Shown here piece after piece: positions 1,905 to 31,692 of a stretch of 64,000 nucleotides of DNA. The notes beneath the pieces are model-generated. The model searched no databases, was not told the origin of the DNA, and worked only from the letters and a program-made list of their open reading frames with translations. The translations under genes were made by a program, and so were the position numbers. Source of the DNA: Candidatus Thiovulum stygium (lineage in GTDB: Bacteria > Campylobacterota > Campylobacteria > Campylobacterales > Thiovulaceae); assembly GCA_021582295.1 (NCBI GenBank), contig CP091137.1, positions 148,970-212,969 of the forward strand, written 5' to 3'. Every line of letters begins with the position of its first letter. Positions within the stretch are counted from its first letter, which is position 1.

Positions 1905-4800
1905 TTGAAGTTATATTTAGCTCATCAAGTGATTTAAATAAGTCTTTTAAAGTGTTAAATTTGCCAAAGGTATGATAGTTGTTGTCATTAATTTTAGCCC
2001 AACTGTCATCGTTAAAATCATTTGTTTTAATTGCAAAACTATGTTCTTGACCATTTAATTCACCAACAACCTCTTTATACATTCCAGCAATATCTATCTT
2101 TGTAGCAATATAACCAATTGAAGGATATTTTCTATCTTCATTGATTGCATAATTTTTACCAAGATTATCTTTACTAGCTAAATCAGTTGCAACTTCGATA
2201 AAATCAGCTTGTTGATCGCCATTGATATCGTGTTCAACTTGAACTGCAATATCAAATTGACCACTCGCAGCAATTTTGACATCATCAAAATCAGAAGCTA
2301 ATGGCGATTTCATTGCTAGAGCAATAATTTGTTCATAAGCTAAAAAGTTTCCATTAGTAGCAAGTGAACCCTCTTTGATAAGAATCCATCTCTCTTCAGA
2401 AACTCTATTTAAAACTCTTGAAGGTTGTTTAGTTACAGTTGAAGGTTGTTTAGTTACAGTTGATGAATTTAGATCATCTTTATGTTTTTTGATAAACCAA
2501 CTATATTGTGCTCCAACAATTCCACCAACTTCGATACCAACTTTTTCAACATCATTAACAAGTCGTTTAACATCTTGATTAACAGTAGCAAGAGCAATTG
2601 GTGCAATTAGTTCTACATTTGCATTAGCAACAGCATAACTATTCTCATCTTTGACTTCACATTTGATTGTTGCATATTTTGGAGGAGCTAACATTTCTAA
2701 TGTAATATCAGTTGTTGATTTTCCATCTGAATCAGGAGTTTTAAGAGATGATAAATTCAAAGTTTTTGCAACAGGATAGTGATTTCCTTCAAGTGCAGAA
2801 ATTGTAAAATCTTCAATAGCACCTTGAGCTGATAAAAGTGTAAATGTAGCTATTCCGTTTGCATCAACATTTTTAATTAGTTCAACTCCACCATTTCCTC
2901 TAACGAGTTTAACAGCAGATTTAGTTAAATTTGTAGTTGATCCAGCTTCAAGAACTTTAATTTGAAGAGTATATTCGTTAGGTCTTAAATCTGGAGTTTC
3001 ATTTTTTGCTTGTTTATAATATGCAAACATTGGTTGAGGTCCAGTAAGAACACCATTGCTTGTTTTAATTAAAGCATTAAATTTCTTGCCACCATCTTTA
3101 AATACTGTTTTTTCTCCATTGCTAAGAGTAATACCAGTTGCATCTTTTGTAATTAATTCAAAATCTGCTCTTGGAACTCTACTCCAAACATTATTGTTAT
3201 AAACAAAAAGTTCAATACCATCGCTAATATTACCATCAGCTTTATCAACACCTTTTAATTTATCAAGAAGATCTTTAGTAGTTTTATTTGTGTCATCATC
3301 TGTTACTTCAGCTAACATATCAGCAGTTAAAGTAACTCCTAATAATCCAAGAATTTTATTAACATTTTCAGCATAATTTCCTGTATATGAAATAACATCA
3401 CTCCAAGATTGACCAAAGTTATATTCACTTTTAGCAGTTTTTGCAGAAACACTGATTTTACCAAGAGGAGAAATAGTATATCCAACCTCATCAAATTTAG
3501 TTTTGATACTAGAGTAATCAGGTAAAACCGACCAATCAGCACTTTTAACTTTAACAAAAGAACCATCAACAGCTACACCACCAAGAGGAAGATAAATTCC
3601 ACCTGCTGAACTTGTATAAGTTTTTTCAACTGTTGCTTCTGATAATCGAGATAGAACTCTTCCGCTTGTTTTGTCATCTGTTGAAAAATCACCATCAAGA
3701 GCAATTTCACCTGTTCCATCATCTTCACTTAAGAAAATATAATTAGCATTTCCATTACTAGAAATTGTTTGAACAGTAGAATCATATTTATTTTTAGAAA
3801 TATAAACTTTTTCAGATGTTGGCAAACTTGCTAAATATATAAATCCTGTTGAACTTGTTGAACCGATGAGGTCGCCAATTGAACCATTTGTTTCAACTTT
3901 ATAAACTTCAGCATCAGCAATAATCGATGGACTTCCACCTTCAGAAACTGAATAAACATAAAGAGAAGCTCCAGAAGTAGCTCTATTTTCTTTTATTTTT
4001 TTATCATCAAGTGTATTTGTTAAAATATTCTTTAAAGTATCAGCAAAATTAGATTTTGGATCAACTTGAGAAGATGAATATTTTTGACCATCAACAGTTT
4101 TTGAAATAATTACACTTGAAACTTTTGAGTAATCTAAAGATGTTGCCAATTCAGTAGCATTGTTCTCAGTAATTGATTTTTTTAATGCTGAAATATCTTG
4201 ACCTTCGCGATCAACATATAATTCAACATCTAATCCGTCAGCTGTTTGAACAGTCCCTGCTAATTTTTGGACTTTAACCCAGTAGCCTGAGTTAGAATTC
4301 ACACTTGTTAAAGAGTTTCTAGCTGAATTAATATTAAAAGTATTTGTAACATTTGTAATGACATCTATTTTTATGCCATCTATTTTTTGTTTTGAAGATA
4401 TATAAGATTTGATAGAATCAATAGAACCTATATTAGAGTTAAAAGATGTTAAATTCCAACCAGCTGATAATGAAACTTCATCATTGCTTAAAGGTGTTCC
4501 ATTTAAAGTAACATTCACATCGGCAGTTGCTTTAACCCAGTAACCTTTACCTACTGAAAGCTTTGTAAGAGAGTTTCTTGTAGCTCCCGCTGTATATGTA
4601 TTTGTTACATTTGTGATTTTTTGAATCTGTGGATAAGTTTTTACTAGAGTTGCAATATCCCATTCACCAGTTGATGACATGGATTTTTCTTGAACCCCAA
4701 CTAAATTCCAACCTGTTCGTATATTGACAGTTTGTGCTGTTGCAAGGTTTTGTAATAAAAGACCTGAAGCTACAGCTGATAATAAAAGTTTATTATTCAT
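1873..4800 (-). CDS. Large secreted protein (975 aa) with repeated GWNL...GYWVK modules
   Basis: N-terminal signal peptide MNNKLLLSAVASGLLLQNLATAQT. Repeated motifs GWNLVGV...GKGYWVKA and AGWNLTSF...NSGYWVKV. Long ORF with no antisense competitor. Confidence 0.75.
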   Translation of the reverse strand: MNNKLLLSAVASGLLLQNLATAQTVNIRTGWNLVGVQEKSMSSTGEWDIATLVKTYPQIQKITNVTNTYTAGATRNSLTKLSVGKGYWVKATADVNVTLNGTPLSNDEVSLSAGWNLTSFNSNIGSIDSIKSYISSKQKIDGIKIDVITNVTNTFNINSARNSLTSVNSNSGYWVKVQKLAGTVQTADGLDVELYVDREGQDISALKKSITENNATELATSLDYSKVSSVIISKTVDGQKYSSSQVDPKSNFADTLKNILTNTLDDKKIKENRATSGASLYVYSVSEGGSPSIIADAEVYKVETNGSIGDLIGSTSSTGFIYLASLPTSEKVYISKNKYDSTVQTISSNGNANYIFLSEDDGTGEIALDGDFSTDDKTSGRVLSRLSEATVEKTYTSSAGGIYLPLGGVAVDGSFVKVKSADWSVLPDYSSIKTKFDEVGYTISPLGKISVSAKTAKSEYNFGQSWSDVISYTGNYAENVNKILGLLGVTLTADMLAEVTDDDTNKTTKDLLDKLKGVDKADGNISDGIELFVYNNNVWSRVPRADFELITKDATGITLSNGEKTVFKDGGKKFNALIKTSNGVLTGPQPMFAYYKQAKNETPDLRPNEYTLQIKVLEAGSTTNLTKSAVKLVRGNGGVELIKNVDANGIATFTLLSAQGAIEDFTISALEGNHYPVAKTLNLSSLKTPDSDGKSTTDITLEMLAPPKYATIKCEVKDENSYAVANANVELIAPIALATVNQDVKRLVNDVEKVGIEVGGIVGAQYSWFIKKHKDDLNSSTVTKQPSTVTKQPSRVLNRVSEERWILIKEGSLATNGNFLAYEQIIALAMKSPLASDFDDVKIAASGQFDIAVQVEHDINGDQQADFIEVATDLASKDNLGKNYAINEDRKYPSIGYIATKIDIAGMYKEVVGELNGQEHSFAIKTNDFNDDSWAKINDNNYHTFGKFNTLKDLFKSLDELNITSIGARECIKLE
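2420..2461 (-). repeat. Perfect 21-bp tandem duplication inside the 975-aa ORF (STVTKQP x2)
   Basis: gaaggttgtttagttacagtt occurs twice in direct succession on the + strand. Confidence 0.9.
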
Positions 4801-26705: not shown

Positions 26706-27448
26706 TTAAAAAGAGGCTACTATATTTAAGAGTTTTTCAATTTCGATATCAAGAATCTCTTCGTTATATCCTTCAATTCGGAGTTCAACAGTTGGTTTTA
26801 GCGAACCATCTTCAGTAATTATATATTTTGGCAAACTTGAAAGTTCAATATCTTTTGGTAAATTTTTCATCCAATCTATAAAACGATTTTCAGAAAAATT
26901 TACTGTTAAGCTTTTAGAATATCTCTTAATATTATTAATTGGGTAATATTTATCAAGAGCTTCAATAATCATTGGATGAGACATTTCTGGAAAACCTGGA
27001 ACAAAAAAGAATCTTGAATCAATAGAAAATCCACACATCCCATTAATTGGATTATTAAATAATAGTTCTGAATCTTTTGGTAAATATGACATATTTACTC
27101 TATGATTTGAACCATCAATTCCAAAACGAGCATATATTTTTTGACGAAAAATATCATTAAATTCCATTTCTCCATTACGAAAAACATCACCAGCAATATT
27201 TCTTGTTAAATCATCTGGAGTTGAACCAATTCCCCCAAATGAAAAAAATACTGAATCTACTCTATTTTTCAAAAAATGAAAGTGATCTTTAATATCTTGT
27301 TCATTATCTCTAATTATATAAATACCTGATAATTTCCAACCTCTTTTTTGAAGTTCATCTCTTAAAAATTTAAAATGTGCATCTTCACGACGACCAGTTA
27401 AAATTTCTGTGCCAATAATTACTCCAAAAAAGATGGTTTGATTATCAT
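26706..27448 (-). pseudogene. CinA-like / molybdopterin-binding (MoCF_BD) domain protein, 5' end displaced by a -1 frameshift in an A6 run
   Basis: The frame is open upstream of the track ORF (IFFGVIIGTEILTGRREDAHF...GGIGSTPDD) but has no start codon. The ATG at 27448 overlaps the upstream stop as ATGA. It comes into frame if A6 27426-27431 gains one base, giving MIIKPSFFGVIIGTEILTG. Confidence 0.65.
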
Positions 27449-28194
27449 TTTGTGCCTCGTTCTATTTTAAAATTCTCATTATCAATAACTTTTAAATTAT
27501 CATTTGCAAAATATATACCTGCAAATAATACTAAAGAAGCTCCAAATAAAATAGTTTGAACAACTGACAATATTGTTAAAGTTGAAACTTTAGATTTTAA
27601 ATCTTTTGTAACATGTTCTTGTTGATCTTGTAACTCTTTTATTCTTTCCATTGCTTTATTATTTATCGAAACTCCACCTCTAATTTCAATTAGCGATTTT
27701 TTTACAACAGATTCAACTTCTCGTTCTATATTTTTAGCAAATTTATCGTAATTAACTGCTTCTATAATATCTTTCATTCGATGTTCAAGAGCAATTAAAT
27801 TTGAATCAAAAAGCAAAGCTAATTTATCTAATTTATCATCAAATATTTGAGTAATATCTTTAGTAATATCATTTTTAAAACGGTTATGAAAAAGAATCAG
27901 TTCATTATTAATTCTTTCAAGATTGCTAATATCTCGACTAAATTCAGTAACACGAAAATCAAATTGTTCAATTGATTCACGAACACTCTCTTTAGCCACT
28001 TTTTTAAACTCTTCGAGTTCAATTCGCATCAGTTTATGATACTCTTTATTCTCTGATTTAGATAAATCTAGAATATCTTCAAGATTACGAATAACTTCTC
28101 TGTTCGCATATAAAAATGCCCAAATAGGGTCATCTTTATCTACTTTTATATCAAATAATCTAAAAATATCTGCCCTAATTTGTTCAATGTTCAT
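27445..28194 (-). CDS. Coiled-coil protein with C-terminal TM anchor (249 aa)
   Basis: ORF track. Heptad-rich central part and C-terminal hydrophobic segment LTILSVVQTILFGASLVLFAGIYF. Confidence 0.55.
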   Translation of the reverse strand: MNIEQIRADIFRLFDIKVDKDDPIWAFLYANREVIRNLEDILDLSKSENKEYHKLMRIELEEFKKVAKESVRESIEQFDFRVTEFSRDISNLERINNELILFHNRFKNDITKDITQIFDDKLDKLALLFDSNLIALEHRMKDIIEAVNYDKFAKNIEREVESVVKKSLIEIRGGVSINNKAMERIKELQDQQEHVTKDLKSKVSTLTILSVVQTILFGASLVLFAGIYFANDNLKVIDNENFKIERGTK

Positions 28195-28252
28195 ATTATT
28201 TTCTCTCTTATGATCTGTTTGATTAATTGGTGAATTATAAGAATTTATTATG

Positions 28253-28288
28253 CCCCCCCCGATAAATGCCGATATTTCAGGGGGGGGG
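28253..28288. repeat. Inverted homopolymer pair C8 ... G9 (potential 8-bp all-GC hairpin / contingency tract)
   Basis: C8 at 28253-28260 and G9 at 28280-28288, separated by 19 nt. These are the only long G/C runs in the window. Confidence 0.9.
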
Positions 28289-28435
28289 TAGAAGAGGATT
28301 TATTTCTCCTAAACTACTATGATTTTTAAAAGGACTTGCATATTCACTTCTCATTTCGGCAATTGATTTTTTAATGTTTCAGGAGAGATGCCATCATCAA
28401 GACTAAAACTTTTATTAACCATAATATTTTATATA

Positions 28436-29375: not shown

Positions 29376-31692
29376 GTGAATTCAAAAATTTATAGGAAAA
29401 GTCTAATTTTGACTTTAACTATTTTTGTTTTAATTGGAACACTTGGTTCAGCTATGATTTTTTCTATTTTGAATAAAGTCGCTATTCAAATTGGAGAAAG
29501 TTATTTAACAGTTCATACAAATCATCATCAAGAACAGATGGCAAAAATATTAGAAAATGGAGCAAAGATTTCTAATTTATTTTCTGTCAATAAAAATATT
29601 TTGCAATTTATTCAAAATGAATCAAATTTAGAGGCTAAAAATTTAGCTTTTAAAACTCTTAATGAATATGTAAAATTAAGTGATAGCGATGGTTGGTTTA
29701 TAGCTATTCGAGATAGCGAAAATTTTTATTTTAATAATCTAAAAAACGAATTTAGTGGTTCTGAACTTCGTAAAAAATTATTTATTGGAAATGTAGATGA
29801 CATCTGGTTTTATTCTACTTTAGATTCTAATAAATCTTATAATATAAATATAGATTTTGAAAAATCAATTAATGATATAAAAGTTTGGATTAATTATAAA
29901 ATAGTAGATAGCAATGGTAGAGTAATCGCTATTTTTGGTTCAGCTTTTGATTATGAAAGATTTTGGAAAGATTTTTTAGATGAAGAAGATAAAGATTTAA
30001 GAATTATTACTATATTAAAAAATGGAGATATTATTGCACATAAAAATATATCTATGATAAATGAAGATGCTGAATTTTTATCTCAAGATGAAGATAAAAA
30101 AAATATATTTCAGTTTTTTACAAATAGAGATTTTAAATATCAACTTGAAACAGAAATATCAAAATTAAATAGTCAAAGAACTATAAGTTTTATATCTAAA
30201 TTAAATAAAAATGATAAATATGAGAATATTATTTCGGTTTCACTATTATCTTTAAGTAATGTCGAATGGTATATGTTTTCAGCTATGAATTTAGGGTCAA
30301 TTATTGATGAATATAATAAACTTCTAATCGTTTTGATATTTATTTCTATATTTATAACTCTATTTATAATAAATTTAATCTTTATTAAAAGTCAGTTTTT
30401 GAAACCTATTCATGAATTATATGATGTTATTCATGCTATGCGAAGCGGTGAATTAACAAAACGAGTAACAAATTTTAAAGATAGAGAAGATGAAGTTGGT
30501 TCATTAATTCTTGAATTTAATAATATGGTTGATATTGTAGAAAAATATAAAGAACATAGTTCTAAATTATATACACTATTAACAGAAAATATGGCTGATG
30601 TTATTTGGATGATGGATAAACATGGAAATATTTTATATATTTCACCATCTATTGAATATTTAACTGGATATACACAAATGGAAGCAACTCTTCAGAAAAT
30701 TGAAGATAGATATAGTTCAGAATCAGTATCAATTATTTTAGAACATATGCTGAATGCTATTCAGTATAGCGATAGGTAATCTTTTGAAGTGATCTCCAGA
30801 TTTTCCCCCGCTTCATACCGTACGAGCGACTTTCACCGCATACGGCACTCCATCAAGTTTATTAAAATCATTATATTATAAATATTCTAAAAGCAAAATT
30901 CAATATTAAGTTAAAATTAATTCTTAATGTATTACAATATTAAAGATTTAAGTTTATTTAAGTATAAATCAGTTAGATTTGTTTATTTCGTCTAACTAAC
31001 GAATCGCACATCATGAAATTCCAGTTTTAAAACTTAAACAAATACGAAAAAATGGTTCGATAATTTGGGTTGAATTAAATTTAAAAATTAAAATCGATGA
31101 GGTCGAAGGCATTAGATTTATAGGTTCAACTAGAGATATTTCTAATAAACTCGAAATGGAAAAACAGGTTGAAAGATTACTTTTTATCGATTCTTTAACT
31201 GGGCTTGTAAATCTAAAATATTTAATGAATATAATTCAACATCATTTATATAACTTGCAATTAAACGGAGGTTTTGGAGCATTAATCGATATCAATATTG
31301 ATGAATTTAGACATATCAATGAAGCTTATAGTTTTAATGTTGGTGATAACTTATTAATCGACATTAGCAAAAGATTAAAAGATTCTGTTCGCGAATCGGA
31401 TTCAATAGCTCGAATTGGTGGTGATGAATTTTTAGTTTTAGTTGAATATCTTGGTAAAGATTCCAAAATTGCTCCAGAAATTGGTTATTTAATTGCCGAG
31501 AAAATCAAATTTTTTATACAAGAACCTTATAAATTAGAAAATGGTGATACAGTTTATTTAACTTGTAGTATAGGTATAAGAATTTTTAATGCAAATTCTA
31601 ACATCGAAACAATTTTAAAAGATGCAAATTTAGCGATGTTTCAATCAAAACACAATGGAAAAAATTTAATAACTTCGTCGGAGACAATTTAA
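29376..31692 (+). pseudogene. Sensor diguanylate cyclase (TM - periplasmic domain - TM - HAMP - PAS - GGDEF), interrupted inside the PAS domain
   Basis: 29376-30779 encodes TM/HAMP and the N-terminal half of PAS (VIWMMDKHGNILYISPSIEYLTGY). The frame reopens at 31000 (RIAHHEIPVLKLKQIRKNGSIIWVE...DISNK...DSLTGL...GGDEFLVLV). The gap of about 226 bp is foreign sequence. Confidence 0.8.
30774..30999 (-). mobile_element. About 226-bp insertion carrying a group II intron domain-V-like hairpin (5'-truncated intron remnant), antisense to the host gene
   Basis: The minus strand 30848->30815 reads GTGCCGTATGCGGTGAAAGTCGCTCGTACGGTAT. This is 29/34 identical to yeast ai5gamma domain V, with the GAAA tetraloop and the 2-nt bulge. 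The insertion boundaries are inferred from where the host frame breaks and reopens. Confidence 0.6.

Follow-up and report, generated by a model that had tools for sequence, protein, structure and literature searches.

The insert that splits a sensor diguanylate cyclase gene is very probably what is left of a bacterial group II intron: a dead copy with an internal deletion, which would make it an inert relic. By descent it is a group II intron: the Rfam model RF00029 is matched above threshold, the GUGYG and AY signatures stand at its edges, and a branch-point adenosine lies 7 nt from its end. The first ~50 nt and the last ~118–140 nt of the intron have been retained. What is missing comes to roughly 2.4 kb and comprises the rest of domain I, domains II–IV, and the reverse transcriptase gene. 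The locus is a pseudogenised sensor diguanylate cyclase and not two genes; it was broken by a retroelement remnant of a sort that protein-based intron finders miss. The features of the locus are listed below with their positions in the window, which is the whole 64-kb stretch of DNA that was analysed.

29376–30767, plus strand: upstream part of the host gene with the transmembrane region, HAMP, and the first half of PAS; the last host codon, TAT, corresponds to Y474 of the ortholog P0001
30766–31009, minus strand: whole insert, an internally deleted group II intron that keeps its two termini (from the empty sites L009–L013 and megablast breaks)
30769–30811, minus strand: domain VI; its bulged branch-point adenosine is 30773 (RF00029 alignment)
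30815–30848, minus strand: domain V, 34 nt, GUGCCGUAUGCGGUGAAAGUCGCUCGUACGGUAU, with a GAAA loop and the 2-nt bulge UC (RF00029 alignment)
30849–30883, minus strand: last bases and stop codon of the reverse transcriptase ORF, 3' side of domain IV, and junction before domain V (Enterococcus faecium alignment)
30884–30962, minus strand: central AT-rich segment, element positions 48–126, 12–15% GC, of which ~57–79 nt are without demonstrated origin
30968–31000, minus strand: first domain I hairpin, element positions 10–42, with the 10-bp stem GUUAGUUAGA/UCUAACUGAU (folding)
30998–31009, minus strand: intron 5' terminus GTGCGATTCGTT, the GUGYG consensus within a family-specific 12-mer (12 family 5' ends)
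31010–31692, plus strand: downstream part of the host gene with the second half of PAS and GGDEF; in frame from 31012, where CAT corresponds to H475 of P0001

The edges of the insert were set by comparison with five relatives in which the site is empty. The inserted element comprises 244 nt (30766–31009, minus strand), and a 2-nt AT ambiguity means that its edges may shift up to 30768–31011. The empty site reads CAGTAT/CACGAAATTCC in L009, which is the DNA of the ortholog P0001, and in the four further relatives L010–L013; all of them lack the insert and are 96–98% identical to the window at the DNA level. Megablast alignments of these relatives to the window stop at 30767 and 31010 and overlap by 2 nt (AT). 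On the element strand, the insertion lies between CATGAT and ACTG, and the 5' exon side of the insertion point reads ...GGAATTTCATGAT/A. The minus strand of the insert starts with GTGCG (31009–31005) and finishes with CGCTAT, the last four bases of which, CTAT, finish at 30766, so that GUGYG and AY fall exactly at the insertion edges. A register after CATG, which would resemble the TAATG and CTATG 5' exons of relatives, was rejected, as it gives non-canonical ends (AUGUGCG...CGCU). The initial annotation had placed an insertion of ~226 nt at 30774–30999, with ~150 nt before domain V and ~41 nt after it. The comparison with an uninterrupted ortholog that it had proposed has now been carried out on P0001 and the other relatives. 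It moves the boundaries outward by 8–10 nt per side and brings the two distances to 161 and 49 nt.

The ortholog P0001 was found in a search with the reconstructed protein. It is uninterrupted, 700 aa long, and 92% identical over its full coverage. In P0001, the insertion point follows residue 474 and precedes residue 475, within the stretch that Pfam assigns to PAS (residues 411–517); the PAS domain of the sensor diguanylate cyclase is therefore split, as had been claimed. Where P0001 reads ...LNAIQY/HEIPILKL..., the window reads ...NAIQY-SDR before a stop and, on the other side, ...RIAH-HEIPVLKL. The two frame positions first reported are accurate: the upstream ORF (29376–30779) runs into the element and ends at TAA (30777–30779), 4 codons inside the insert, and the downstream frame, open from 31000, continues to the end of GGDEF at 31692. 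The insertion length is indeed 1 mod 3, as the 244 nt confirm, but the residues ‘YSD’ and ‘RIAH’, which had been read as host protein, are partly derived from the intron. The public annotation of the downstream part holds only a 178-aa GGDEF ORF (31156–31692). In the predicted products, a sensor with the membrane region, HAMP, and half of PAS is separated from the GGDEF catalytic domain by the frame stop. The element was correctly described as antisense to the cyclase gene. Because of this orientation, it cannot be removed from the cyclase mRNA, and the statement that the host mRNA is beyond repair by splicing stands.

A group II intron domain V hairpin had been recognised by eye on the minus strand, and the covariance model search that was suggested at that time bears it out. 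RF00029, which covers domains V and VI, matches 30850–30766 (minus strand) over the full model (positions 1–77); it scores 53.6 bits, where the gathering score is 40. The E-value, 1e-7 over the whole window, becomes 4.8e-9 when 3 kb are considered. It is the single match in the 64-kb window (Rfam 15, gathering thresholds), and it adds domain VI directly downstream of domain V. The 34-nt domain V sequence originally quoted was located at 30848–30815 (minus strand), where it reads GTGCCGTATGCGGTGAAAGTCGCTCGTACGGTAT, and its 30-nt core had no match in 100 shuffles of the window. Its identity of 29/34 to domain V of ai5gamma is arithmetically right for the reference sequence quoted, which we take to be the ai5gamma one. 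The GC content is ~45–50% over domains V and VI versus 12–15% in the remaining insert, in keeping with the earlier remark that the insert is locally GC-rich.

For comparison within the intron family, metagenomes were scanned with a degenerate domain V/VI pattern, which yielded 76 loci, mostly from the gut. The stretch GCGGGGGAAAATCTGGAGAT...GATTACCTATCGCTAT is common to the element, an E. faecium plasmid intron, and the metagenomic relatives at the 76 loci; in three of these relatives, the final hexamer of GATTACCTATCGCTAT carries one substitution. The sequences of the family part ways directly after CGCTAT, which fixes the 3' end. In the element, this end reads ...CCTATCGCTAT on the minus strand, with the canonical AY, an intact domain VI, and the branch adenosine. 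In the RF00029 alignment, the latter (30773) has no pairing partner, and its distance from the end is the canonical one already given. Domain VI equals the family consensus at every conserved position. Domain V differs from the family in two places. At its base, the element has UGC...A versus CGC...G, with the base pair kept: position 1 of the catalytic triad is U in the element and C in the family, and its partner has changed from G to A. In most group II introns, this position is A, and the U is unusual. The bulge is UC in the element versus AC or AU in the family. An identical 30-nt core, with the UC bulge, is present in introns of 8 unrelated genomes. All 76 metagenome loci have the GG or GA variant, and none has the AA variant of the window. 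No decay is visible in domains V and VI. This agrees with a young relic and would also agree with selection on these domains.

The opposite end of the insert carries an authentic intron 5' terminus. The 12-mer GTGCGATTCGTT agrees with the family-invariant GTGCGAnnCGTT, and G1–A6 and C9–T12 are invariant in all 12 family 5' ends (element included). In each of the 12, GTGCGAnnCGTT is followed by a hairpin, the stems of which vary while the pairing is kept. In the element, this first domain I hairpin appears in both the minimum-free-energy and the centroid fold. A counterpart comes from a sister lineage (L009/L011), which has an intron in the ortholog of the window gene at 27445–28194. BLAST against the loci of the relatives gave 21/22 identities between element positions 1–22 and the L009 intron. 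Over positions 1–47, the local alignment score against the 5' end of the L009 intron is 26 versus 7.9 ± 1.5 in shuffles, a score that was reached by none of 1000 shuffles. The homologous hairpin of L009 shows compensating changes (GATAG/CTATC versus GTTAG/CTAAC). With an authentic 5' terminus at this end, the insert is an internally deleted element and not a 5'-truncated one.

The sister-lineage intron thus shares the 5' end, including the homologous first hairpin, and the host clade with the element. It differs in its site and orientation: it lies in the sense orientation, and its first 127 nt are assembled, whereas the element is antisense. The L009 intron continues into a genuine domain I, which is matched by the Rfam model group-II-D1D4-5 (RF02004) with 51.9 bits and is cut off by the contig end. 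The shared termini suggest that the element belongs to the same RF02004 lineage. Full copies of the family measure 2634–2792 nt, and deletion derivatives of 1552–1563 nt and 702–767 nt occur; the latter are ORF-less introns with complete ribozymes. The family is found on 555 plasmid records and is prominent on plasmids of Enterococcus, Bacillus, and Clostridium. The last 110–118 nt of the element are 85–89% identical to plasmid introns of E. faecium, Clostridium perfringens, and Bacillus, and the closest 3' end retrieved is that of an E. faecium plasmid ltrA intron (L015; NZ_CP041272.1, 78918–81604). The E. faecium plasmid ltrA introns have GTGCGAnnCGTT with the hairpin, a near-identical domain VI, and the 3' end GATTACCTATCGCTAT, as does the element. 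In contrast, L015 has 2687 nt, a complete ribozyme, and a reverse transcriptase/maturase of 620 aa, whereas the element has 244 nt and neither of these. The plasmid introns also have CGC...G at the base of domain V, and the element, with UGC...A, resides in a campylobacterotal host.

Other relatives were also considered. A scan of genome contigs with the 30-nt domain V core retrieved only unrelated introns, of Cupriavidus, Desulfosporosinus, Xenorhabdus, and Peptococcaceae. They were rejected as parents, as they are alike in domain V but not in domain VI and at the 5' end. Among the 120 best matches listed for the E. faecium intron protein, every named one is from Firmicutes, and none comes from the window's own contig. 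The element's 5' 22-mer had no match in the metagenome scan, and two scans of viral contigs gave no match. Literature on Thiovulum together with group II introns yielded nothing relevant.

The two preserved ends enclose a middle part of a different nature. Towards the 3' end, element positions 127–244 align with the last 123 nt of the E. faecium plasmid intron (L015 positions 3490–3612) at 85% identity. The ltrA stop codon of L015 is at 3495–3497, so that the alignment starts 8 nt inside the ORF and includes the stop. Towards the 5' end, only the first ~47 nt of the element align to domain I of the relative. The central segment between them shows no significant similarity to positions 41–127 of the L009 intron (414 of 1000 shuffles were as good). 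A MAFFT alignment that made it collinear with domain I was rejected, as the identity is ~35% beyond the first 23 columns and many changes from G/C to A/T would be demanded in a young insertion. Among 25 family introns, the best match of the segment is 24/30 nt in the coding region of the reverse transcriptase motif ‘FFNNVNH’. This match comes from two family members and is borderline, with 8 of 100 shuffles equal to it. The Rfam models for D1–D4 gave no match on the element at E up to 10. All three frames of the element are closed. The initial statement that the window holds no intron-encoded reverse transcriptase is upheld: tblastn over the 64 kb with the intron-encoded protein of the family gave a best E of 0.28.

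The preferred explanation, an inert relic, can be set out as follows. A full-length intron of ~2.7 kb would have entered the site CATGAT/ACTG by its usual RNA-mediated route, on the strand antisense to the cyclase. Its interior of ~2.4 kb would have been lost through template switching in cDNA synthesis or through a later deletion; the data do not separate these routes. A splicing-competent intron has a complete domain I and domains II–III, whereas 161 nt in all precede domain V here, and even the ORF-less ribozymes of the family take up 702–767 nt. An autonomous mobile intron encodes a reverse transcriptase/maturase in domain IV, and the frames of the element are closed. An ORF-less intron that is served in trans has an intact ribozyme, which the element lacks; such introns usually come in several near-identical copies together with a full-length helper. 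Lacking a protein as well as the scaffold that domain I provides for exon binding and catalysis, the element can neither splice nor move on its own.

The element is an extreme example of a documented kind, that is, of fragmented, ORF-less, and internally deleted introns. Such bacterial group II introns have been described in surveys (PMC2504315, PMC4181065). The same sources describe copies of B.c.I7 in which the ORF is reduced to its first 13 and last 28 bp and an RmInt1 copy without nt 1520–1844. Like the element, these copies keep both intron ends and have lost the interior. Their deletions stay within domain IV and the ORF, and the ribozyme is intact. In the element, by contrast, domains II and III are entirely gone, domain I is gone for the most part, and with them the ribozyme has been lost. 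Like the element, FRE652 of Sinorhizobium is an intron remnant without function that has become fixed in its bacterial genome, but remnants of this type are one-ended fragments, whereas the element keeps both termini.

The insertion appears to be fairly recent, since it is absent from relatives at 96–98% identity, present at 99.6%, and flanked by host halves without any other lesion. The insertion is present in L014, which is 99.6% identical to the window over 2981 nt. The break points of the assemblies give indirect evidence of further copies. In Logan assemblies (k = 31), contig breaks are expected where a terminal sequence recurs in the genome. L014 ends at window position 30794 and L093 starts at 30982; both breaks lie exactly 30 nt (k − 1) in, which corresponds to the element terminus plus 1–2 flank bases. 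Contigs of the sister lineage also break within their intron copy, after 27 nt in Logan and after 127 nt in JGI. Other copies with both termini probably exist in the same genomes, and full-length and miniature copies would be compatible with these breaks alike. A full-length parent in the same genome is inferred from these break points only. The insertions are polymorphic, with an antisense one here and a sense one in the sister lineage, in a family that is otherwise known above all from plasmids of Firmicutes. They document that group II introns have recently been active in an uncultured Thiovulum-related lineage of Campylobacterota.

A rival explanation makes the element one of a family of miniature, non-autonomous group II derivatives, reduced to the termini and domains V and VI, that would be spliced and/or mobilised in trans by the ribonucleoprotein of full-length copies. 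The nearest analogues would be ORF-less introns served in trans and, at a greater distance, the group III and mini-group II introns of euglenid plastids. By the contig breaks, both terminal ~30 nt recur elsewhere in the genomes that carry the insertion; moreover, the element has lost its interior but keeps intact termini, domains V and VI, and branch adenosine. Deletion derivatives of 702–767 nt and 1552–1563 nt do occur in the family, and multi-copy ORF-less introns have been argued to be mobile with a protein supplied in trans (PMC2504315). Nevertheless, this explanation is improbable. A second 244-nt copy turned up neither in the window nor among the 76 family loci nor in the metagenome and viral scans. 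The ORF-less introns known to be served in trans retain the whole ribozyme; without domain I there are no exon-binding sites, and reverse splicing into a chosen DNA site would have no known basis. Additionally, the sole copy seen is antisense and disrupts a gene.

It is more doubtful still that the element represents an undescribed bacterial family of ‘mini group II introns’, composed of the 5' terminus with its hairpin and domains V/VI and propagated in trans by full-length introns of the same genome. Such a family would be a bacterial counterpart of the euglenid group III and mini-group II introns. The introns of euglenid plastids are very short; they begin like a group II intron, have a 3' end similar to domain VI, and are without most of the internal domains; they are numerous, lie in the sense orientation, and are spliced in vivo. 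The element differs from them as a single antisense bacterial copy that is not expected to splice. The case would gain interest only if more identical mini copies exist.

The initial annotation had favoured another origin, namely a 5'-truncated intron 3' end from abortive retrohoming, in which reverse transcription stops before the 5' end. Covariance models do recognise domains V and VI only, and 5'-truncated, fragmented copies are common in bacteria (PMC2504315). However, a 5'-truncated copy would lack both GTGCGATTCGTT and the first domain I hairpin, and it is with these two that the insert opens at the edge set by the empty sites; the family 12-mer and the hairpin, that is, the very 5' end that truncation removes, are present. 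This origin is therefore very improbable compared with an internally deleted relic. A match to domains V/VI is not by itself grounds for assuming a 5'-truncated intron; a comparison with the empty site has to come first, because in the present case it was this comparison that revealed both termini.

It is just as improbable that the element has been domesticated and acts on its host gene as a regulatory or antisense RNA, or as a promoter for a stand-alone GGDEF protein: the downstream 178-aa GGDEF ORF is intact and annotated as a gene, and a TTGAAT-17-TATAAT match lies at 30903–30875 (minus strand), but promoter-like matches are at background (5 observed versus 4.8 ± 2.1 expected), the scan gave no terminator-like sites, and the insertion is young and polymorphic, with nothing that points to selection.

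As for the host, its genome is AT-rich, and the closest named relatives of the FtsH encoded in the window are those of Campylobacterales and Thiovulum sp. ES, at 77–78% identity.

The group II intron family to which the 244-nt element belongs has also inserted elsewhere in the clade. In a sister lineage, an intron of the same family interrupts, in sense orientation, the ortholog of the window gene at 27445-28194, and both contigs that carry it (L009 and L011) stop within the intron copy. The window gene is unbroken, as is its counterpart in the relative L013. Because the gene is interrupted in the sister lineage and uninterrupted in the window and L013, intron insertions are polymorphic in the clade. 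The features that concern this locus, the neighboring genes, and the wider family are as follows.

L009 1-127 and L011 1-30, minus strand (corresponding to window ~27861): sister-lineage group II intron; RF02004 (domain I) match in L009
Window 28212-28382: ~171-nt stretch separating the 249-aa gene from the ParA-like gene
Window 29376-30779 and 31156-31692: cyclase halves, called as separate proteins in public annotation
L006 6552-6626 and 7355-7429, same strand, ~800 nt apart: two RF00029 (domain V/VI) matches

The stretch at 28212-28382 may be a further small insertion, besides the 244-nt element. When the loci were compared, it was found in the near-identical relative L014 and was missing from the more distant L009-L013. 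A C9...G8 inverted repeat (CCCCCCCCCTGAAATATCGGCATTTATCGGGGGGGG, minus strand) lies within the stretch. As for the disrupted cyclase, public gene calls give a 456- or 467-aa product for the N-terminal half and a 178-aa GGDEF-only product for the downstream half; both are pieces of a single pseudogene.

In gut and other metagenomes, full copies of the family (2.63-2.79 kb) are found alongside shorter versions, namely half-length introns of 1552-1563 nt (L056, L063) and ORF-less introns of 702-767 nt that retain a complete ribozyme (L024, L057, L037). The paired matches in L006, a Peptococcaceae metagenome-assembled genome, could represent introns in tandem or nested, or else a further short derivative.

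The center of the 244-nt element (window 30917-30957, element positions 53-93) weakly resembles the region coding for the reverse transcriptase motif FFNNVNH in two family members, L034 and the Enterococcus faecium plasmid intron of L015 (24/30 nt, equaled by 8 of 100 shuffles). If this resemblance is real, the element would be a patchwork of three intron pieces and not the product of a single deletion.
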